Shown piece by piece: positions 2,080 through 38,119 of a DNA stretch of 64,000 nt. The stretch lies in assembly GCA_964511375.1 (NCBI GenBank), contig CAZEEW010000002.1, positions 36,157-100,156 of the forward strand, in the 5' to 3' direction. Position 1 is the first letter of the stretch. Each line of letters begins with the position of its first letter. A program made the translations under genes and the position numbers. The stretch comes from an uncultured Gammaproteobacteria bacterium. GTDB lineage: Bacteria; Patescibacteriota; Patescibacteriia; Magasanikbacterales; GWA2-37-8. Below the pieces are notes generated by a model. That model saw only the letters and a list, made by a program, of their open reading frames with translations. It made no database searches and had not been told where the DNA came from.

Positions 2080-4104
2080 ATGCAAGATTTCACACACGAA
2101 CTTAACCAGGAACAACTAGCCGTCGTTTTACAAGGCGACGGTCCTTGTTTGGTGTTAGCTGGAGCCGGTAGTGGGAAAACTCGGGTTATTACTTACCGCG
2201 TAGCGTATTTGCTTGCCAATGGTACAAGACCAGAAGAAATTCTTTTGGTAACTTTTACCAATAAAGCCGCTGGTGAGATGCTTTCTCGCGTTCAGAAAAT
2301 CACCGGCCATACTGAGCACTTGCCTTGGGCCGGTACTTTCCACCATGTAGCAAATAAAATCTTGCGTCAGTATGCGCCTCTGGTTGGTTATAAAAACAAT
2401 TTTACAATTTTAGACACTGATGACAGCGAGGCACTCCTTAAACTTTGTATTAAAGAATATAAGGATGAAAAGATGGGGAAAAGATTCCCGTCAGCGAAAG
2501 TTTTGAAAGACATTTTCAGTTATGCGAGGAATGCTGAAACTACTGTTGATGACGTGATCGATCGTCGCCATCCAGATTGGTATATTTATGCCGAAAAGAT
2601 CAAGGATATTTGGAGCGCCTATGAACGACGCAAAAAAGAGGCTAATGCCATGGATTTTGATGATCTCCTCTTTAATCTTCTCTTACTTTTAAACCAAGAA
2701 AAAGTTATTGCCAAATTCGCTGATCAATTTAGATATGTTTTAGTCGACGAATACCAGGACACTAATCGATTGCAGGCTTCGATCATCAGTAAATTAGCCA
2801 TAAAACATAAAAATCTTTTGGTCGTGGGAGACGATGCTCAAAGCATCTATTCTTTTCGAGCGGCTGATGTGCAAAATATTTTAGGTTTTAGTAAGGTTTA
2901 CCCAGACGCTAGGGTGTTTAAACTGGAAACCAATTACCGTTCTCATCAAGAAATTTTAAATTTAGCCAATGACGTTATCGCGAATAATTTTAAGCAGCTA
3001 AAGAAAAATCTTCGTACCGCCTTTGAACAAAAGACTAGTTTAGAAAAACCCGCTCTTCATCCCCAAATAGATGAAGCGGACGAAGCCGAGTTTGTAGTCA
3101 GAGAAATTAAAAAGCTAAAAGATAAGGGGGTAAGGCCAGAAGAAATTGCCGTGCTGTTTCGGGCGGCTGGTCATGCCCAGCGTTTAGAAATGGAGTTAGT
3201 AAAAGCCAATATCCCTTATGATTTTCGTGGTGGCCTCAGATTTTTTGAGCGGGCTCATGTTAAAGATGTCTTGTCGTATTTAAGGCTTTTAACCAATCTG
3301 TCTGATACAGCCGCTTGGATGCGAGTGCTTTTACACGAAGAAGGAATTGGCCCAACTGGTGCAACCAAGATTGCGAGTGAAGTAAAAAGATTGGTTGATG
3401 CTCGAGAAATTCTGGGGTTAGATTTGGTTGGGGTATCTGAAAAAGCGAAAGTTGGTTGGAATAACTTTGTAAATATTTTCCGCACCCTTATTAATACTGG
3501 CGCCAAACCCAGTGAATTAATTTCTGCTCTTATTGATTCGCCTTATCGCGATTACCTAGAGACCGAGTTTATTGACGCCGATGAACGAATTGAGGATTTG
3601 GAAGAAATGGCTGGCTTTGCCAGTCAATATGGTACGGTCGAGGATTTTCTAGCTGAGGCAACTTTGCAGGAAAGTTTTATTTTGCAAAAGGATCGTACGA
3701 GTAGCCCGAAGGACAAAGTAATTCTTTCCACCATCCATCAGGCTAAAGGTTTGGAGTGGGAAGCGGTATTTGTCATTAACCTAACCAACGGTGCTTTCCC
3801 TAATGAACGAGCTCTTAAAGAAGACGGTGGTCTAGAAGAAGAGCGTCGTCTGTTTTACGTTGCGGTTACACGTGCAAAAAAACATTTGTTCCTTACTTAC
3901 CCCATGGAACAAAAAGGCTGGGGTGGTCTGGGTGGCCCGAGCCTATTCTTAGATGAAATTGACCGAGATCTTATCGATGATCACTCTTTGCTAGGTGGAA
4001 GTAACTATACCGTGCTAAATGACGACGACGTTACCTACGAGCCAGAGGATCGCCCTTTAAGAATTAAACCCGGCAGTTTCTTACGTGACGTTGACGACCT
4101 CTAG
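2080..4104 (+). CDS. uvrD: ATP-dependent DNA helicase, UvrD/PcrA family
   Basis: Walker A AGAGSGKT, DEYQDTN, helicase motif VGDDAQSIYSFR, C-terminal TRAKK motif. Confidence 0.88.
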   Translation: MQDFTHELNQEQLAVVLQGDGPCLVLAGAGSGKTRVITYRVAYLLANGTRPEEILLVTFTNKAAGEMLSRVQKITGHTEHLPWAGTFHHVANKILRQYAPLVGYKNNFTILDTDDSEALLKLCIKEYKDEKMGKRFPSAKVLKDIFSYARNAETTVDDVIDRRHPDWYIYAEKIKDIWSAYERRKKEANAMDFDDLLFNLLLLLNQEKVIAKFADQFRYVLVDEYQDTNRLQASIISKLAIKHKNLLVVGDDAQSIYSFRAADVQNILGFSKVYPDARVFKLETNYRSHQEILNLANDVIANNFKQLKKNLRTAFEQKTSLEKPALHPQIDEADEAEFVVREIKKLKDKGVRPEEIAVLFRAAGHAQRLEMELVKANIPYDFRGGLRFFERAHVKDVLSYLRLLTNLSDTAAWMRVLLHEEGIGPTGATKIASEVKRLVDAREILGLDLVGVSEKAKVGWNNFVNIFRTLINTGAKPSELISALIDSPYRDYLETEFIDADERIEDLEEMAGFASQYGTVEDFLAEATLQESFILQKDRTSSPKDKVILSTIHQAKGLEWEAVFVINLTNGAFPNERALKEDGGLEEERRLFYVAVTRAKKHLFLTYPMEQKGWGGLGGPSLFLDEIDRDLIDDHSLLGGSNYTVLNDDDVTYEPEDRPLRIKPGSFLRDVDDL

Positions 4105-5507
4105 GCCTTGCTCATCACCCTGAAGCCAAGCTCTTTCCCACGCTTGGCTAGTTTTTTTGTTGGCTTAACCAGGGTAGCGTGTTTGACCACGCGGAGCATG
4201 CCAAAGTCATGCCAAGAATTGCCATAGGCAAAGCTTTTGCCGAGATCAATCTGGTATTCATGGGCCAGATCAACAATTTTTTCTTTCTTAAAATCGTCTT
4301 TCATAATATGCCCAACTACCCGCCCGGTGAATCTTCCTTCTTTTATTTCCGCCCGGGTGCCGTAGCTCGGTATTCCAAGCCAGGTAGCAATTGGCTTCAA
4401 AATTTCTTCTGGCTCTTCGCTCACGATAAACAATAAATTATTCTCCTTGCGGTGTAAGTCTAAGGCCTCGAGCATTTTTGGGAAGAATATATTTGTGTTT
4501 TTTTTATCTAAGTTCTCGTAGAAGTTTCCGATTAATTCTTCTGCCGAAACCCCGCGCAAAGATTTAATTGCTTGTAAATAAAACCACCCATGTTTTTTGA
4601 ATAGTTGGATTAGACCAAGATGGAGAAGCTGTAAGAATAAGCGGGGCGATTTTTTTCGCCAGACGTAGTTTAAAACTATTTCTTGGTAAATATTTTTTTT
4701 AGTTAAAGTCCCATCCAGGTCAAAGAATGCGGCTCGGATCCCTTCTGGATAATGAGGTATACTTTTTTCCGTAACGTATCTCTTTGGTAAGTGTTGGATA
4801 ATTATTTCTTCAATCACCTGGATATCCCGTATCTCGTCTTGTGCTACTTCGTGTAAAAGTATGGGTTTTTCAATCGTTATTTCTAATCCAGTTGGACTAA
4901 GTAGAAATTTGCCAGGTGGGAAAAGTTGGTCAGCCCCTTTTAACACCACTGGCACCACTGGACACTTGGCTTGTAGCGCTATTTTTGCCACCCCAGCGTG
5001 GAAGGGGAGAAGTTTGTGTTTGTACTCACGTGTACCTTCGGGAAAGATTAATAATGATTGACCATTTTGAATTATCTCTACTCCGTTTTTTACCACTTGC
5101 TCGTGGTGTAGGGCGCTTTTGTATTTAAGCTCTTCAAAAATGTCTCTGGCCACCTCAAAGTATTGCATTTTTCTAAACCAGGGAGCAATGGGGAAGGGGA
5201 AAACACCAAACGGTGCCGTAACGGCAATAAACGGCCGGCGTACCAGATGAGAAATAATAAGACCATCTAGATAGCTTTGGTGATTGGCGCAGAATACGGC
5301 TGCCCCGTCTGGAATATTTTCAAGTCCATGTACTTTAATTTTGATTCGACAGGCTTTAAACAAGTTATCTATTACTTTAAGGGATAGGACACGCCATTCT
5401 AACGGACCTTGTTTGTTTGTTAAAATGCCGTATACATAGTAAAGAATAAGTAGACCAGCAAAGACAGAATAGAAATACAATGTAAAAAGAAGATTTTTAA
5501 TTTTCAT
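4101..5507 (-). CDS. Fusion protein: 1-acyl-sn-glycerol-3-phosphate acyltransferase (PlsC-like) N-terminal domain + HAD-superfamily (SerB-like) phosphatase C-terminal domain
   Basis: N-terminal TM, HX4D (NHQSYLDG) and FPEGTR acyltransferase motifs; then HAD motif I FFDLDGTLT and motif IV GNSWHDFGML. Confidence 0.7.
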   Translation of the reverse strand: MKIKNLLFTLYFYSVFAGLLILYYVYGILTNKQGPLEWRVLSLKVIDNLFKACRIKIKVHGLENIPDGAAVFCANHQSYLDGLIISHLVRRPFIAVTAPFGVFPFPIAPWFRKMQYFEVARDIFEELKYKSALHHEQVVKNGVEIIQNGQSLLIFPEGTREYKHKLLPFHAGVAKIALQAKCPVVPVVLKGADQLFPPGKFLLSPTGLEITIEKPILLHEVAQDEIRDIQVIEEIIIQHLPKRYVTEKSIPHYPEGIRAAFFDLDGTLTKKNIYQEIVLNYVWRKKSPRLFLQLLHLGLIQLFKKHGWFYLQAIKSLRGVSAEELIGNFYENLDKKNTNIFFPKMLEALDLHRKENNLLFIVSEEPEEILKPIATWLGIPSYGTRAEIKEGRFTGRVVGHIMKDDFKKEKIVDLAHEYQIDLGKSFAYGNSWHDFGMLRVVKHATLVKPTKKLAKRGKELGFRVMSKA

Positions 5508-7137
5508 AATTCTCGTTAACAGTATTTAATAACGAATATACTTTCTGTTCCCCCATACCTTTAAGATGCAAAGTCCTTTCTTCATACTGGAATTTCTCCA
5601 TTAAGAAGTTTTTTAACTCCCGACCCAAGAGTATTTCGTTTTTTTCGGCATTCTGACACAACCGGGCGGCGTAGTTTACAGTTTCGCCTAAGAAATCCCA
5701 GATCCGTTCATGCTCGGGTCCCACTTCCCCGGAAATAAATTCACCGTATTCTAAACCTACTCGCAGTTGCCAGCCCATCTGGTTAACTAGAGATACTAAT
5801 TTCTGCGCCGCCTCGAGCGCATTTACACACAGAGCCGGGTAATCCTCGTCATCTTTGTACCCACCAAAGACAACCATAATTCCATCGCCTAGATATTTGT
5901 AAACCCAGCCACCGCGTGACTTAACCACACTGTTAGACAGATCAAAGAAACGATTTAAGTCATTTAACATTTCAGTAATGTTGGCGGCCTCATGTACACG
6001 ACCCGAAAAATTGACTAGGTCAGCAAACAAAACTACACCACGATTACGACTCGGTGGCAATTTTTTTGTCGTCATGAGATTAACCAGATCTTCTGGCAAG
6101 TGTGAAGCAAGAATTTGGCTTAGTTGGTTTTTTAATTTTTCAACCTGTCGTTTTTCGTCAGTGATAATCTTGTTTCGCTCTTTAATGGTTTCTTCTAATT
6201 CCTGCGCGTAACTTTGAAAGTAACTAATGCGCTCTTCCAGGTCTTTAAAAGAAACATTAGTTTTTGCAAAAGGATGGGCCAAATTTTTTAGACGCTGTGT
6301 AAAAGGTAAATGCTCCCAACTAATTTTAATAATAAAATACGGCACGTTATATATTTGCCCGGGAATAAGTAGAGGATAGGTTTTATACCAGAGTTCTTTG
6401 GTAATAAGCACACCTTTAGTGGCAAATGGACTTTCGACCGGTTTGGTTTTGCCAAGGCATAGTGAGCCGAGAGAAGTTTCTTCGTTTACCAATTCGACGA
6501 CCTCACCGTAGACCGTATCTTCAATGTACAGTTTATCGTTTCTAAGTTCAGCAAAGATTTGGAATTGGTTACGAAGGAGTTTTACCACATCATATTGCAA
6601 GATTACCTCCTCAACTCTAGCCGGAGGTAAATTCCAGATCTTTGGTAAGCTGGAAAAAACACCTTTCACAAGTGGGCCAGAGATAAAGTCTTCTTCAATG
6701 TCTATACCGCCTCGGAAGCGTACGCGCAGGTAAGCCATGTTCTGGCCGCAAGAAATTACCTCCATGTACTTGGTTCGGTTGAAAAACTGGTTGTATTCAG
6801 GAATTTTTTTAATAACAAAACTGGGATCGGCGAAAGTCGAACCGATTAGCCTCTTCAAAATCTCGACAATGCCAAGCCCCCCTTCCTCAGTGGCCAAAAG
6901 CCCAATCTGGTAAAAGATGTTTGGGTCGTTGTCGATTAAATGCTGAACCCGACTGCAAAGTTTTAAGAAAGTAGGAAGCGAAATCCAATGATCAGGGTTT
7001 TTTAAATAGTCGGCAGGGTAGCCTAAATTATCTAAAATGTCATTTTCAGATAATCCTTTTTTGCGACAATATGTTAGTACAAGACCAACATTACGGTTGC
7101 AAACCAAAAGCTCCTCCTTTTCGTAGGATTTCTCCAT
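5497..7137 (-). CDS. Class III adenylate/guanylate cyclase domain protein with unknown N-terminal domain
   Basis: C-terminal cyclase homology domain: VVLFADLVNFSG … KYLGDGIMVVFGG … NYAARL. Confidence 0.7.
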   Translation of the reverse strand: MEKSYEKEELLVCNRNVGLVLTYCRKKGLSENDILDNLGYPADYLKNPDHWISLPTFLKLCSRVQHLIDNDPNIFYQIGLLATEEGGLGIVEILKRLIGSTFADPSFVIKKIPEYNQFFNRTKYMEVISCGQNMAYLRVRFRGGIDIEEDFISGPLVKGVFSSLPKIWNLPPARVEEVILQYDVVKLLRNQFQIFAELRNDKLYIEDTVYGEVVELVNEETSLGSLCLGKTKPVESPFATKGVLITKELWYKTYPLLIPGQIYNVPYFIIKISWEHLPFTQRLKNLAHPFAKTNVSFKDLEERISYFQSYAQELEETIKERNKIITDEKRQVEKLKNQLSQILASHLPEDLVNLMTTKKLPPSRNRGVVLFADLVNFSGRVHEAANITEMLNDLNRFFDLSNSVVKSRGGWVYKYLGDGIMVVFGGYKDDEDYPALCVNALEAAQKLVSLVNQMGWQLRVGLEYGEFISGEVGPEHERIWDFLGETVNYAARLCQNAEKNEILLGRELKNFLMEKFQYEERTLHLKGMGEQKVYSLLNTVNENYEN

Positions 7138-7242
7138 AAAGTCAATTATTGTCCACTCGGTATATTACTGCTTTTTAGTGGAAAACACAATATACAATTT
7201 GTCAACTTTCGCAGAAAGAAGCGATGTGTTAAAATATATCCA

Positions 7243-8055
7243 ATGTTAAATTATCATTTATATATGAAATACATTGCAAGATTGGGGTTAATAATAGGTG
7301 TAGTGTTATTGCTCGGTGCTTCTTGTGTTCCACAAGGGAATCAAGTACCAAGAACGAATACTCCTGTAAACAATAATGTAGCAAGCACAACAGACTCAAA
7401 TTCTGTCAATTCTGAAGTGCGTAACTCTGCTCCAACTGTTACGGGTTTACCCAAAGCGACTACAACTAGACCAGTAGTTAAACCCGTTACAACTTCCACT
7501 AATCCCTTGCCCTGCAATTCAAATGCTCAGTGTGTGTCTGGTAAGTTGTGTGTTAATAGCGAGTGCGTTCCAGCGGAAACGGTTCTACCAAAAGATCCAG
7601 TAACTGGTGAATTGCTCTGCAACAACAATGCCCAGTGTATTCCTGGGAAGCTTTGTGTGAACCAACACTGTGTACCAGCTGAGACCGCGCTCCCCACCAA
7701 TACCACCACCGGACAATTGCTTTGTAGTAATGATGCCCAATGTGTCCACGGTAAGGTTTGTGTTAATGGGAATTGTGTGGCTTCTTCTACAACTTCAAAA
7801 AGCTTGCCATCAGTTACTAATTGCTCATCAGATAGCCAGTGTAAAACCGGCGAAGCTTGTTTCCAGGGACGATGTACTACTGTGCCAGCAACCTGTAAGT
7901 ACCATACGGAATGTTTAAGCGATGATTATGTTTGTAGTAACGGGACCTGTGTTTGGCCAGGCTCAAGTGGTCATACTTGTCAGAATTCTTCCGGTGAAAG
8001 ATGGCATTGTCTGAATACCCAGAAGTGTGGAGTCAAAGAATTTGAGTGTATATAA
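7243..8055 (+). CDS. Secreted/lipoprotein-like cysteine-rich repeat protein
   Basis: N-terminal signal/lipobox-like LLGASC; S/T/N-rich linker; 3-4 tandem ~35-aa repeats CxxxAQCxxGKxCVNxxCV; alternative start at M8 (7264). Confidence 0.65.
   Translation: MLNYHLYMKYIARLGLIIGVVLLLGASCVPQGNQVPRTNTPVNNNVASTTDSNSVNSEVRNSAPTVTGLPKATTTRPVVKPVTTSTNPLPCNSNAQCVSGKLCVNSECVPAETVLPKDPVTGELLCNNNAQCIPGKLCVNQHCVPAETALPTNTTTGQLLCSNDAQCVHGKVCVNGNCVASSTTSKSLPSVTNCSSDSQCKTGEACFQGRCTTVPATCKYHTECLSDDYVCSNGTCVWPGSSGHTCQNSSGERWHCLNTQKCGVKEFECI
7510..7810 (+). repeat. In-frame degenerate tandem repeats (~105 bp x3) encoding the Cys-rich modules
   Basis: tgcaa(t/c)…aatgc(t/c)cagtgt…ggtaag(t/c)t(t/g)tgtgt(t/g)aa repeated at ~7510, ~7615, ~7720. 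Confidence 0.7.
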
Positions 8056-8068
8056 TTTATCGTAAAAT

Positions 8069-8105
8069 AAACACACCACCAGCTAAACTGGTGGTGTGTT
8101 ATATA
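8069..8105. terminator. Hairpin acacaccaccag/ctggtggtgtgt after Cys-rich gene; start of GC-rich islet 1
   Basis: 12-bp perfect stem, short loop. Confidence 0.5.
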
Positions 8106-8217
8106 CTAAATTCCTGTTCACGCGTATCTCCTTGTTATTCCCCCAAAACTTTAGGAAAATAACGGGCGGCGCGAACGAGGAACTTCGAGGTGGAGAATGC
8201 CACCCGTTGGCGATCGG

Positions 8218-8478
8218 TCAGTAGGTGTAACCTAGCTGCCGACGCCGTTCAGCTTCCGCGCGACGCTCGCGCTCCGCCGGTGCGAGCTTTTCGCACCGCG
8301 GGAGGAGGTTGCAGTCGAAGCAGGTCGACTGGACCTGCCCACCCATGGCGCGGGTGACGCGCTCGACGAAGTCGTGGCACGGGCTGTTCTTCAGTCCGCC
8401 GGCCCTCTTCCTCTCTTGGCCGGCCTTCCTCGTGGCTTCCCGGACTCTCTCGCGAGCCCGCCGCTGTTTCGCTCCCAT
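8218..8478 (-). CDS. GC-rich islet 1: small Arg/Lys-rich protein with Cys cluster (putative zinc-ribbon), 86 aa from ATG (TTG-extended ORF to 8529)
   Basis: ~65% GC segment 8150-8545 in a ~40% GC genome; GGAG 5 nt upstream of ATG; C-x17-C-x2-C-x5-C. Confidence 0.45.
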   Translation of the reverse strand: MGAKQRRARERVREATRKAGQERKRAGGLKNSPCHDFVERVTRAMGGQVQSTCFDCNLLPRCEKLAPAERERRAEAERRRQLGYTY

Positions 8479-8578
8479 GGCTTCTCCATGCACCCAGTAA
8501 ACCGGGGTGCCTCGGTGGACAATATACAACCACTATTTTATCTTGTTGTCAATTGTTTGTTTGCTGGGCTAACTAGGT

Positions 8579-8613
8579 ATTGACAAAAGACAGGGGATAT
8601 AGTAGAATTTCCG
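8579..8613 (+). promoter_or_regulatory. Sigma70-like promoter for rpsL-rpsG-fusA (TTGACA-17-TAGAAT)
   Basis: ttgacaaaagacaggggatatagtagaat. Confidence 0.55.
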
Positions 8614-8684
8614 CAGAACGTTGAACAAAAATCTCGTGGCTGAGCAATTTCGTTCAGCTTTTTTGTATCCAAGTTAATTTATTT

Positions 8685-9113
8685 ATGCCTACATTAAACC
8701 AAATAATGCGCAAAGGCCGAACCCCAAAGGTTCAAAAAACCAAGTCTCCGGCCTTGCAATTTACGGTCGACAACTTACACCGTAAGAAAACAGTTTTTGC
8801 AAAGGGAACCAGTTTTAAGCGTGGTGTTTGTACCAAGGTGTACACCACTACTCCTAAAAAACCAAACTCTGCTTTGCGTAAAGTTGCCAAAGTTCGTTTG
8901 TCCAATGGTATGGAAGTTATCGCTTACATTCCAGGCGAAGGACACAATCTTCAGGAACACTCTATCGTCCTTATCCGCGGTGGTCGTGTAAAAGACTTAC
9001 CAGGTGTCCGCTACCACATTGTACGCGGTGTTTATGATACTCAAGGTGTAGAAAAGAGACGACGTGGTCGCAGTCGTTATGGTGCCAAGAGACCGAAAGA
9101 AGCGAAAAAGTAA
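8685..9113 (+). CDS. rpsL: 30S ribosomal protein S12
   Basis: MPTLNQ…KGR…[10 protein letters not shown] hallmark. Confidence 0.95.
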
Positions 9114-18564: not shown

Positions 18565-18741
18565 ATAGTTTATTAAATAACCAGTTAATCATATTACTGT
18601 AAAGACAGAAAAAAATCAACAATTTTTTCATTAAAAAGTCAAATTTATGGTCCACTAGCGTTGACTTATTGTACACCTGGGTTACTGTACTAAAATGGTA
18701 TGACTTCGTAGTCCCAGCGCAAGCTGGGGGAGGAGTACAAC

Positions 18742-19656
18742 ATGTGGTGGGTTTTCGTGGCTGCCGTTTCGGCTGCTGTCGGTCAGCCTCCTGACGAGTG
18801 TTGGCAACCGGCCCGAGCCGCGCTGGAATCAGTCGGCGCTGTCTGGACCGGCACGCAGCCAGACGACACCCGTGTCGGCTGCCGTGAGGTGGTCGACGGA
18901 ATGTGGGGATCCTGGGAGTACACTGAGGAGAAGCTGGCCCGCTCAGCCGAAAGAGACGGTTGTCGTGGAGCCAGAGTGCTCCATAGGAGCTATGCTGCTG
19001 GACCCGCCGGGTGCAGTGTCATCTGTGTGCGCCTCAAGTGTTACGCCGAGGATGTTGACCTGGCGCCGGAGATGGAGACCGGCATCGACGAAGTCACGCT
19101 CCTCGCTCTCCTCAGGAAATCGGAACCTGAGGAGCAGCTTCCTGAGGAAGACGACTACGCATCTCTGGAGGCTGCTTCGGAAGAAGCGGTCCACCCAGAC
19201 GAGGAGGAGCTTGTTCCTCCAGACCCTCCGTCTTCGGAGGATCCAGCTCGGCTCGCCGGCGACATGACTGGGCTGGCGGTTCTCCTCGAGAGACAGTCCG
19301 GGTCGTCCGAGACTGAGATGCGCTTTCCTCGTCGGAACGCGAAGCTGGCTCAGCCGGTGTATGAGCCGGAGCCTATCGCTGACTCGGTCGTGGCCGAGGC
19401 GAATCCTCAGCCAATTGCGATACTCGAGCAGGCTCCCTCAGTGCCGGAGTCCCCGCTGCCGGCTGCTTCCCCCGAACTTCGTGCGTTCCAGGTGGAGATT
19501 GGGGGTATGATCGACGAATTTCGCCGCTCGCGTGAGTCTCTCAGGGAGAAGCGGCGGGAGATGCGGGAACGTTCCCGCGCCATTCGCGATGACTGGCGGC
19601 GCAAGCGTGACGCTTTGCGTTTCCAGACTCGCCAACTCGGGGCAGCGCGTCCTTGA
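18742..19656 (+). CDS. GC-rich islet 2: 304-aa Pro/Glu/Arg-rich hypothetical protein
   Basis: ~63% GC block 18716-19735; GGAGG 8 nt upstream of ATG while native genes lack SD; hairpins after stop; no recognised domain. Confidence 0.4.
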   Translation: MWWVFVAAVSAAVGQPPDECWQPARAALESVGAVWTGTQPDDTRVGCREVVDGMWGSWEYTEEKLARSAERDGCRGARVLHRSYAAGPAGCSVICVRLKCYAEDVDLAPEMETGIDEVTLLALLRKSEPEEQLPEEDDYASLEAASEEAVHPDEEELVPPDPPSSEDPARLAGDMTGLAVLLERQSGSSETEMRFPRRNAKLAQPVYEPEPIADSVVAEANPQPIAILEQAPSVPESPLPAASPELRAFQVEIGGMIDEFRRSRESLREKRREMRERSRAIRDDWRRKRDALRFQTRQLGAARP

Positions 19657-19825
19657 AGGGGCAGCTGTCCTTCGCCCCTCGATCTGAGGTATCGGGTCGA
19701 GGGCTGTGTCACGAGCGTCAAATGTTTTGGCTCTGGTGAAACCGTATTCATACACAGTTAATACACACAATTTTCGTTGACGAGACGATATATTTTGTTA
19801 TAATGATGAGGTAATTATTGAATTT

Positions 19826-32694: not shown

Positions 32695-32735
32695 AAAAAC
32701 CCAGTACTATATAGTGCTGGGTTTTATTGTTTCGG
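32695..32735 (+). terminator. Terminator after secY (aaaaacccagtact-atat-agtgctgggttttattgtt); near-duplicate after asnS
   Basis: Stem + T-run; same frame aaaacccag…ctgggttttattgt as 37478-37512. Confidence 0.6.
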
Positions 32736-32741
32736 TTTATA

Positions 32742-32797
32742 CTTCTCGACTCTCCAGAAAAGTCTATCTTAAACTTCTCTGGAGTCCAGTCGAGAAG
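32742..32797. repeat. Imperfect ~20-bp-arm inverted repeat (cttctcgactctccaga … tctggagtccagtcgagaag) at edge of GC-rich islet 3
   Basis: Seen directly; no T-run, so not an obvious terminator. Confidence 0.5.
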
Positions 32798-32834
32798 CGC
32801 GGGGTGAAGGCGCGACGCGTCTGTCCTCCGCCCC

Positions 32835-33125
32835 TTAGGTCAAGAATGCCTCGAGCAGGGCTCTGACGATCGTTCGTCCGAGCTGGTTCTGCAGGGTCGG
32901 CATTGCCGAGCCCGTCATCCCGGCTAGGAAGAAAATCGCCGCAACCGCACCGAGCGCTACCCCGGTAAGGGGAGGGTGCGGAGGGTTCTTGAGTCCGTCG
33001 TTAATCGCTGCCGCAGTTGCGACAGCAAGCGTCAGTGCTCCTAGTACGGTCCAGATCATATTCTTTCCTCCTCTTGTTTCCGTTGCGAAACAGCCAACTT
33101 TATCACAAACTCCGCCCATTGTCAA
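32835..33125 (-). CDS. GC-rich islet 3: small two-TM membrane protein (74 aa from ATG at 33059 with AGGAGG SD; longer 96-aa ORF to 33125)
   Basis: ~62% GC block between secY and adk; strong SD; two hydrophobic helices with G/A-rich faces. Confidence 0.45.
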   Translation of the reverse strand: MTMGGVCDKVGCFATETRGGKNMIWTVLGALTLAVATAAAINDGLKNPPHPPLTGVALGAVAAIFFLAGMTGSAMPTLQNQLGRTIVRALLEAFLT

Positions 33126-33147
33126 GTCTAAAAACCTATGGTATAAT
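33119..33147 (+). promoter_or_regulatory. Sigma70-like promoter for adk (TTGTCA-17-TATAAT)
   Basis: ttgtcaagtctaaaaacctatggtataat. Confidence 0.5.
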
Positions 33148-33225
33148 CCTTTTTGTTGGAAATTAGGCTAAATATAGCCCATGCCCCTTTTGGGGCGTTT
33201 TTCTTTCAGAACATTAATTATTATC

Positions 33226-35850: not shown

Positions 35851-35858
35851 TTAGAGAA

Positions 35859-35880
35859 CCCCACGACCGTGGTCGTGGGG
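35859..35880. terminator. Perfect GC hairpin ccccacgacc-gt-ggtcgtgggg after recO; edge of GC-rich islet 4
   Basis: 10-bp perfect stem; no T-run. Confidence 0.45.
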
Positions 35881-35906
35881 GCTGTGGGCCTTGCGCTTGG
35901 ACGGGT

Positions 35907-36041
35907 TTAACCACCACAAGCTGCTCGCAGGGCCAGGACAATAAATCCGACGATGATCAGGGCGCCAATCGCCCTAAATATCCCGCCGAAGATGAGGCAG
36001 ATCAGGCCGAGCGCAAACCCGGCCAAAAACCAACTTAGCAT
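35907..36041 (-). CDS. GC-rich islet 4: 44-aa hydrophobic single/double-TM peptide (MLSWFLAGFALGLICLIFGGIFRAIGALIIVGFIVLALRAACGG); below the ORF-track size cutoff
   Basis: GGAGG 5 nt upstream of ATG; ~62% GC; translated by hand. Confidence 0.4.
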   Translation of the reverse strand: MLSWFLAGFALGLICLIFGGIFRAIGALIIVGFIVLALRAACGG

Positions 36042-36153
36042 TTGTCCCTCCTAGTCGCCTTATTGAATTTTATATCATTCTATCCTCTTCAGCAAAACTT
36101 GCTAAAATTAGCGAAAAATGGTAAGCTAAAAAGGCTTTAAGCTTTGAAAACAT

Positions 36154-37446: not shown

Positions 37447-37477
37447 CGAGAAAAGGAGCATTAAAGTTCAAGAAACA

Positions 37478-37512
37478 AAAACCCAGCGCTAATTGCACTG
37501 GGTTTTATTGTG
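37478..37512 (+). terminator. Terminator after asnS (aaaacccagcgc-taatt-gcactgggttttattgt)
   Basis: Near-duplicate of secY terminator. Confidence 0.6.
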
Positions 37513-37525
37513 TTCCTTGATCTTA

Positions 37526-37583
37526 CGCTTCGCAGTTGATCTGAAATAACAATTGTTATTATCTCAGACCGACACTGCGAAGC
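37526..37583. repeat. Inverted repeat cgcttcgcagt … actgcgaagc enclosing a perfect 16-bp palindrome AATAACAATTGTTATT (37545-37560)
   Basis: Seen directly; operator-like symmetric site at the edge of GC-rich islet 5. Confidence 0.6.
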
Positions 37584-37612
37584 ATCGGACGCGCACACGC
37601 GCATGTTGGGGA

Positions 37613-38002
37613 TCAGAATCGGAGGGGGGTCGATGCCAGCTTGTCCCGTAAGTCCTTGAGGACCTGGTTTCGGTAGGGGAAGTACTCTGACCCGGTGCTG
37701 AGCTCGAGCCACATGCACCGCTCGCCGTGCTGTAGGTAGACTTCTACCGCGTCGTTGGAACAGCTTGGTGCACACCAGGGATCGATCTTGTACATCTCTG
37801 GGATGCGATCGAAGCTGTTCTCCAGCGCGTAGAAGACACCCTTGTCACAGTAAGACTTGACGACGAGCAGACGCCCTTCAGTTTGCGAGCGCAGAACTTG
37901 GTTGCTCTCGCGGTACAGCCGTGGACAAAACCACCCGAACAAGAACCAGATCACCGCGATCGTCGTCGCCGTCTTCATCGCCGCCGAGGTAAGCCTTTTC
38001 AT
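37613..38002 (-). CDS. GC-rich islet 5: 129-aa signal-anchored/secreted protein with 4+ Cys
   Basis: GGAG 7 nt upstream of ATG; N-terminal hydrophobic MKTATTIAVIWFLFGWF; ~60% GC. Confidence 0.45.
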   Translation of the reverse strand: MKRLTSAAMKTATTIAVIWFLFGWFCPRLYRESNQVLRSQTEGRLLVVKSYCDKGVFYALENSFDRIPEMYKIDPWCAPSCSNDAVEVYLQHGERCMWLELSTGSEYFPYRNQVLKDLRDKLASTPLRF

Positions 38003-38119
38003 CACTTAACTCCATGCGCCATCCAGGCGCTCTGTTGTCGAGGAACAAGTGATTATAGCAAAGAGAGAGAGAGTTGTCAAGATGGTCTAACAGAATTGTC
38101 TTTAATATTACCCAAAAAA

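Follow-up and report, generated by a model that had tools for sequence, protein, structure and literature searches.

The intergenic region ahead of the rpsL-rpsG-fusA (str) operon in the DNA analyzed here raises the question of how a short block of deviant composition, with a small open reading frame (ORF) on the strand opposite to the operon, is to be explained, and whether it has any part in the regulation of that operon. The window, i.e., the entire stretch of 64,000 nucleotides under analysis (positions 36,157-100,156 of contig CAZEEW010000002.1), has a guanine-plus-cytosine (GC) content of 41.6%, whereas composition profiles and an islet scan delimit in it a block of 371 nucleotides at 8150-8520 (islet 1) with a GC fraction of 0.652. 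This composition, on which the initial annotation of the region had placed no stress, is the decisive feature of the islet. Its minus strand carries an ORF of 86 amino acids (8218-8478 including the stop, with the ATG at 8478 and the TGA at 8218-8220), whose translation we re-derived exactly as that annotation had quoted it. The explanation that we prefer, with roughly an even chance of being right, is that islet 1 is an expressed, autonomous minigene cassette resembling the 'morons' of phages and carrying an orphan cargo. As such, it would be a compositionally foreign, self-contained unit read from the minus strand, in which a promoter and a Shine-Dalgarno (SD) sequence precede the 86-amino-acid ORF, and a long 3' hairpin and a terminator follow it. 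It would occupy a hypervariable intergenic slot before the -35 element of rpsL in a Magasanikbacteria-like patescibacterium, as one of at least five cassettes in the window that differ among related genomes and appear able to sit at different intergenic sites.

Layout and candidate expression signals of islet 1

Considered as a unit, islet 1 lies between the bidirectional terminator of the upstream gene and the -35 element of rpsL. The candidate promoter of the minigene (8521-8552, minus strand) combines TTGACA (8552-8547) with TATATT (8526-8521) across a 20-nucleotide spacer, the alternative being ACAACA-17-TATATT with an 8/12 match to the consensus, of which 3/6 fall in the -35 hexamer. The SD core GGAG (8484-8487, minus strand) lies 5 nucleotides before the ATG. 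Directly 3' of the stop codon, the minus strand has a short GC-rich hairpin (8186-8206), which is followed in the 3' untranslated region (UTR) by a long, imperfect, two-tier hairpin, GC-rich at its base and AT-rich at its top (8108-8185; folding z = -4.5), and then by a predicted intrinsic terminator, bidirectional and with a perfect stem of 13-14 bp (8070-8100), which would serve both the plus-strand gene for a 270-residue protein and the minus-strand minigene. The long hairpin and the terminator together fold with z = -6.9, and the two-tier architecture of the 3' hairpin is common to islet 1, islets 3 and 4 of the window, and a syntenic locus of a relative (L161). A hairpin scan of the entire window was not selective enough to inform on these structures, and the inverted-repeat tool missed hairpins with bulges.

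The 86-codon frame as a probable coding sequence

Three independent signals, namely codon-position periodicity, a codon model, and the SD sequence, favor the 86-codon frame, which is probably a real coding sequence. The GC content at its three codon positions (0.68/0.55/0.79) shows the classical pattern of high-GC coding sequences and is non-random relative to shuffled sequences (p = 0.002). A codon table derived from the ORFs of the sibling islets yields +14.9 bits for this frame, as against -0.7 to -27.7 bits for the other five, and its codon usage favors the islet model over the host model with a log-odds of +74 bits. An SD core of 4 nucleotides is found ahead of 5/5 islet ORFs vs 6/54 host genes in the window (Fisher p = 9e-5). 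In the relative L161, 6/29 host genes have an SD sequence; further SD-led ORFs from cassettes, described in the sections below, are the islet-4 homolog P0003, one of the two L161 peptides related to that of islet 5, and the 117-residue ORF of L187.

The predicted product

The product is rich in arginine and lysine, as initially reported, with 17 Arg and 5 Lys residues vs 11 Asp/Glu and an isoelectric point of 10.6; it has no hydrophobic segments and is hydrophilic, basic, and of the soluble type. A type I toxin was considered and rejected, because a small hydrophobic membrane peptide would be expected of such a toxin. Cysteines at positions 34, 53, 56, and 62 form the pattern C-x18-C-x2-C-x5-C; the motif as first described had their number and the x2 and x5 spacings right and gave the first spacing as x17. 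A single-sequence AlphaFold model is all-helical (H4-25, H33-45, and H56-83), with no strand and a predicted local distance difference test (pLDDT) score of 63.

Zinc ribbons are built from two CxxC (or CxxH) knuckles on β-hairpins that jointly hold one Zn. The 86-residue protein has a single CxxC (C53-x2-C56) with C34 and C62 isolated, matches no zinc-ribbon or zinc-finger profile in the Pfam, NCBIfam, and PDB searches given below, and is modeled as all-α; structure prediction, which had been proposed as the check for a zinc-ribbon fold, returned three helices without a strand, at low confidence. The zinc-ribbon assignment is accordingly not upheld. Nucleic-acid binding, also part of the initial claim, is plausible as a deduction from the composition. 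We picture the cargo as an orphan, cytosolic, arginine-rich, and mostly helical protein, whose four cysteines would most likely hold a metal center, either an Fe-S cluster or Zn, and whose two arginine-rich helices would most likely contact nucleic acid.

On the searches made, which covered about 15 billion proteins, Pfam, PDB, phages, plasmids, and metagenomes, the product appears to be an orphan. Word-indexed HMMER found no match among 5.8 billion clusters, and full phmmer against 1.84 billion representatives gave a single one, a 322-residue repeat protein aligned over 6 short stretches, which we judged to be spurious. JGI metagenome contigs and IMG/VR viral contigs yielded no match. With tblastn, nothing was recovered from 50,697 phage genomes (E <= 10), plasmids (E <= 1), or all 195 loci fetched in this study, and blastn of islet 1 itself against phages and plasmids gave no match. 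Among family and structure collections, there were no hits in Pfam (E <= 1), NCBIfam (E <= 5), or PDB sequences (E <= 10), and no usable match in PHROGs or PADLOC, the best being to phrog_27916 (E = 0.035 over 19 residues). A search of the literature for GC-rich islets or orphan cassettes in the candidate phyla radiation (CPR)/Patescibacteria found nothing relevant.

The rpsL-upstream slot in related genomes

The window RpsL is closest to those of Candidatus Magasanikbacteria/Patescibacteria metagenome-assembled genomes; the nearest GTDB representative is 81% identical to it, and metagenomic relatives reach 89-94% or more. Comparison of these loci indicates that the region upstream of rpsL is a hypervariable hot spot, in which the landing place appears to be conserved and the cargo not. 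Relatives with 89-90% RpsL identity show the order UvrD, two small unrelated plus-strand genes, a short gap, and rpsL. In the same slot, L185 has a GC-enriched orphan gene for a 149-residue protein, and the Magasanikbacteria relative L001 (PFCB01000025.1) has a 60% GC antisense mini-ORF (350-640), coding for a membrane protein of ~65-77 residues, with a TTGACT-17-TAGAAT promoter. A set of contigs comprising L186, L187, L189, and four others has an identical RpsL (P0124), which clusters at >=90% with that of the window. In L186 and L189 the stop codon of UvrD abuts the -35 element of rpsL, i.e., the slot is empty, whereas L187 and the four others hold a ~720-bp insert with an antisense orphan gene for a 117-residue protein, a perfect TTGACA-17-TATAAT, and an AGGAGG. 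The insert of L187 (3030-3790), from Hainich groundwater strains, opens with three tandem degenerate repeats (tgtcattccgatcc..., tgtcattgcgaggagcggagcgacg..., and tgtcatcctgagcaaagcgaagg...). These repeats precede the antisense gene, and the entire insert is missing in L186 and L189. None of the proteins encoded in this slot in relatives resembles the 86-residue product by tblastn.

The interval between UvrD and rpsL (window 2080-8685) measures ~4.5 kb in the window vs 0-1.3 kb in the relatives, and contains an acyltransferase-HAD fusion, an adenylate/guanylate cyclase, a DUF7107 protein, and islet 1. The gene upstream of the islet (7243-8055, plus strand) encodes the 270-residue protein, which is of the secreted type and composed of repeated C-x5-C-x4-C-x5-C-like modules with matches to DUF7107, Dickkopf_N, and EB modules, unusual in bacteria of this group.

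On the other side of the islet, the rpsL promoter (8580-8608, plus strand) comprises TTGACA (8580-8585), a 17-nucleotide spacer, and TAGAAT (8603-8608); its 11/12 matches to the consensus and its alignment with the promoters of relatives confirm the original assignment, and homology with the relatives at rpsL begins at the -35 element. The description of the ORF as lying immediately upstream of this element is apt insofar as it is close by and on the opposite strand, but its ATG is 101 nucleotides away and the GC-rich block stops ~60 nucleotides short. Since the ORF and rpsL are divergent, with promoters back to back, their transcripts would run apart, and the suggested antisense overlap with the str promoter is not to be expected. 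The minigene would rather be transcribed away from rpsL into the shared terminator, as an accessory gene outside the regulation of str.

The 5' leader of rpsL (8615-8668) contains a conserved box, CAGAACGT ... CTCGTGGCTGAGCA, together with a hairpin resembling a terminator (8638-8659) and followed by a run of T. The box and the hairpin are kept in 5/5 compared relatives, with some compensatory changes and no match in Rfam, and the leader is possibly an attenuator or an autoregulatory element of the operon.

Sibling islets in other intergenic gaps

Between other genes of the window are four further islets (57-64% GC), each with an SD sequence, promoter-like hexamers, and hairpins. Islet 4 (37460-38090) carries on the minus strand an ORF of 129 amino acids (37613-38002) with an N-terminal hydrophobic segment, a GGAG, a GC content at third codon positions (GC3) of 0.78, and a perfect TTGACA-17-TATAAT promoter (12/12). 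Its protein has a homolog (P0003), ~58-60% identical, in other Patescibacteria, found on 6 contigs from ENA, NCBI, and JGI assemblies. In the syntenic locus L161 (9925-10520), the promoter, 5' UTR, ORF, and 3' hairpin of the unit are all conserved, and the unit lies between SecY and Adk, i.e., in the slot that islet 3 takes in the window, whereas islet 4 of the window lies between AsnS and a phosphatase. Between the two versions, four-fold degenerate sites are 0.57 identical and the protein 60% (GC3 0.78-0.86), while most host genes show a nearly saturated four-fold identity of 0.36-0.40 (L15 0.53) and a protein identity of 71-96%. The higher identity at four-fold sites with lower protein identity therefore suggests that the islet-4 cassette spread after the divergence of the hosts, and that its protein evolves fast. 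The ORFs of islets 3 and 4 are unrelated and nevertheless have a homologous 3' hairpin-plus-terminator module, the only sequence sharing detected between islets; this common module may have a function in recombination or stability.

The other three siblings are diverse in their cargo. Islet 2 (18600-19750, plus strand), the largest block with up to 64% GC, contains an ORF of 304 amino acids (18742-19656), whose orphan product is acidic and rich in proline in its middle part and has a basic helical C-terminus; it has no match in Pfam, NCBIfam, PADLOC, plasmids, or viruses, and its exact sequence is a singleton in the protein collection. Islet 3 (32725-33150, minus strand) codes for a 75-residue protein (32835-33062) with two hydrophobic segments, suggestive of a two-helix membrane protein; its promoter (TTGACA-17-TAAAGT, 10/12) has a palindromic TTGTCAA/TTGACAA -35 in common with the divergent Adk promoter (TTGTCA-17-TATAAT). 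Islet 5 (35851-36045, minus strand) codes for a 44-residue hydrophobic peptide (35907-36041), with an AGGAGG and a GC-rich terminator. The peptide ends in ...AACGG, and two paralogs in L161 (43 and 47 residues; 6727-6858 and 7013-7156), located in the same RecO/AsnS gap, both end in ACGG; they look like a family of small membrane peptides or type I toxin-like peptides.

Alternative explanations

Several observations weigh against islet 1 as an expressed minigene cassette. The length of the ORF is uninformative: dinucleotide shuffling of the islet, at 65% GC, gives an ORF of >=103 codons in 71% of cases and an ATG-initiated one of >=86 codons in 23%. The candidate promoter is the weakest of the five islets and was not reported by the consensus scan. 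All six ORFs of islet 1 are absent from the 15-billion-protein collection that holds the ORFs of islets 2, 4, and 5 of the same contig, i.e., the 86-residue ORF was missed by gene callers and is unannotated. No homolog was found that would attest to the evolutionary maintenance of the protein, and Foldseek with the low-confidence model found 0 matches in PDB. Neither a recombinase nor a target-site duplication or terminal repeat was identified, the flanks of the islet having in common just a 6-nucleotide ATATAC, too short to be meaningful, and mobility is accordingly deduced from comparative positions; nor was an exact empty-site allele of islet 1 found, the upstream neighbor also being different in the relatives. 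The frequency of long ORFs in shuffles, the five other ORFs of 43-94 codons that overlap the 86-codon frame, the weak promoter, the missing annotation, and the failure to find a homolog would all fit a piece of horizontally acquired, GC-rich, non-functional scrap or a decaying cassette, in which a low density of stops leaves a frame without a useful product. We regard this as rather unlikely, given the codon-position periodicity, the codon score that is positive in one frame alone, the correctly spaced GGAG as in all sibling cassettes, and the intact frame with its structured 3' end and terminator. These points weaken the explanation, although periodicity would linger for a while in a recently dead gene. 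GC-rich intergenic regions of AT-rich genomes are often structured non-coding RNAs, and the segment 8140-8530 folds somewhat better than shuffles on both strands (z = -2.2 on the minus and -3.5 on the plus strand), its 3' part very well. That the whole block is such an RNA with an incidental ORF is nonetheless very improbable: Rfam gave no family match to islet 1 at its curated thresholds and no meaningful one at E <= 1 (best scores 24 and 21 bits vs gathering scores of 114 and 112), it is the 3' UTR and terminator that are strongly structured rather than the body of the ORF, and the periodicity and frame-specific codon score indicate coding. The explanation to which we give the least credence is an assembly chimera, in which reads from a high-GC organism would have been joined into a patescibacterial contig. 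The source contig is indeed metagenome-assembled and no second assembly with islet 1 was retrieved, but the five islets are separate, and each is exactly intergenic and has an SD, a terminator, and promoter-like signals of its own; the flanking operons are syntenic without a break, an equivalent GC-rich cassette of a relative occurs in independent ENA, NCBI, and JGI assemblies, and both NCBI and Logan have records of ORFs from islets 2, 4, and 5.

Two further alternatives concern the product rather than the islet. The original view of a zinc-ribbon nucleic-acid binder that regulates the rpsL-rpsG-fusA promoter, or interferes with it in antisense, can draw on the basic protein with its four cysteines and on the proximity of the gene to the rpsL promoter on the opposite strand. 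Ogr/Delta of phage P2 is a small Cys4 zinc-finger regulator encoded next to its target. A precedent is Brz of Halobacterium, a small zinc-finger regulator located beside its target (PMC2253796). The single CxxC, the predicted all-α fold, and the lack of a zinc-ribbon family match speak against such a regulator, as do the divergent promoters with transcripts that do not overlap and a composition that is not native to the operon. Moreover, the gene is missing from every available relative despite the conserved rpsL promoter and leader; conservation in no relative had been named beforehand as grounds for dismissing the ORF, and its absence from the rpsL site of the relatives implies that it is no conserved partner of the str operon. 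By this non-conservation, a regulatory role in str, to which we assign very little probability, appears largely refuted. A divergent WhiB-like (Wbl) [4Fe-4S] transcription factor, taken from an actinobacterium or actinophage, would also explain the 65% GC. Proteins of this kind bind a [4Fe-4S] cluster and region 4 of a sigma factor. The Wbl family is defined by a length of ~80-140 residues, [4Fe-4S] ligands in the pattern CxnCx2Cx5C, and a G[V/I]WGG motif (PMC7363131). An 86-residue, soluble-type protein with this cysteine pattern at n = 18 agrees with that definition in size and cysteine spacing (PMC7363131), the predicted helices are compatible with the helical bundle of Wbl proteins, and the GC content and SD usage of islet 1 resemble those of actinobacteria. 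However, G[V/I]WGG is absent after C62, where the sequence reads EKLAPAERERRAEAERRRQLGYTY, and the protein also lacks the Trp, Asp, and FFP positions that are invariant in the WhiB alignment. An hhalign comparison with a WhiB1/WhiB/WhiB3 alignment gave a probability of 0.3%, aligning the CxxCx5C stretch alone, and the Pfam, phage tblastn, and HMMER searches described above returned nothing of this kind, including no Wbl among the matches in the 1.84 billion representatives. With the motif, the invariant positions, and profile similarity all missing, membership in the family was rejected, and we hold a Wbl origin to be improbable.

Implications of the cassette reading

Taken alone, the 86-residue ORF is another orphan gene of modest interest; the genomic context is more informative, and the class of cassettes that it suggests merits a survey. 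Extending the preferred reading of islet 1 to its siblings, we tentatively raise the possibility, though not as the more probable outcome, that the clade carries undescribed mobile single-gene cassettes, which would be GC-rich and SD-led in AT-rich hosts nearly devoid of SD sequences, with their own σ70-type consensus promoter and a common 3' hairpin-terminator module. With no recombinase linked to them, they would hop or be exchanged between intergenic slots next to core operons. In that case, islet 1 would be one of them, with a new small Fe-S/Zn nucleic-acid-binding protein as its orphan cargo.

Patescibacteria, which are ultra-small and depend on hosts, are generally credited with streamlined, stable genomes. 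The gaps beside their most conserved operons, as seen here, hold fast-changing, foreign-looking minigenes with apparent expression signals of their own. If these cassettes are indeed mobile, they would make it possible to trace the flow of genes into episymbiotic bacteria and would supply candidates for surface and regulatory proteins that interact with host cells. They would also show, as a natural experiment, whether translation of SD-led genes takes place in a lineage that does without SD sequences on its own genes. The islets also carry a warning, in that gene callers trained on the composition of the host miss such genes, as illustrated by the absence of the 86-residue ORF from protein collections.

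Comparison with known systems

At the level of the protein, the likeness to Wbl proteins (PMC7363131; PDB 5OAY) extends to size, the CxnCx2Cx5C pattern, predicted helices, basic segments, and a high-GC gene; the 86-residue product differs in having neither G[V/I]WGG nor sequence or profile similarity, and in coming from a host that is neither an actinomycete nor an actinophage. It resembles small Cys4 zinc-finger regulators encoded next to their targets, such as Brz of Halobacterium (PMC2253796), in being small and basic, in having four cysteines, and in the location of its gene beside a promoter. It differs from them in the spacing of the cysteines, and it has no family match and is not conserved with the neighboring operon.

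At the level of the cassette, the islets recall integron cassettes and single attC cassettes in the presence of one ORF with a long imperfect 3' palindrome, in the occurrence of a related hairpin on unrelated ORFs, and in the occupation of different sites. No integrase was identified for the window cassettes, and inspection by eye alone found no convincing integron cores (RYYYAAC/GTTRRRY) at the bases of the hairpins. In contrast to integron cassettes, those of the window carry their own promoters and intrinsic terminators, as predicted, and are scattered singly instead of arrayed.

The closest parallel is with phage morons, i.e., added single genes that have a promoter and a terminator to themselves and stand apart from their neighbors in GC content, e.g., gene 15 of HK97 (Cumby, Davidson & Maxwell 2012, PMC3594210). 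Like these, islet 1 is a single-gene unit of deviant GC with its own predicted terminator. Morons are placed where related genomes have two adjoining genes, with a content that varies among relatives; such a placement is seen at the same rpsL-upstream slot, empty in L186 and L189 and filled in L187, and for islet 4 in comparison with L161. Unlike morons, islet 1 lies in the core of a chromosome (UvrD, the str operon, and the ribosomal-protein operons through SecY and Adk) and not in a phage or prophage, gave no phage homologs in the searches above, is far GC-richer than its host, and is SD-led in a host that is nearly devoid of SD sequences; its sibling cassettes, moreover, are distinguished from morons by a long 3' hairpin module that they have in common.

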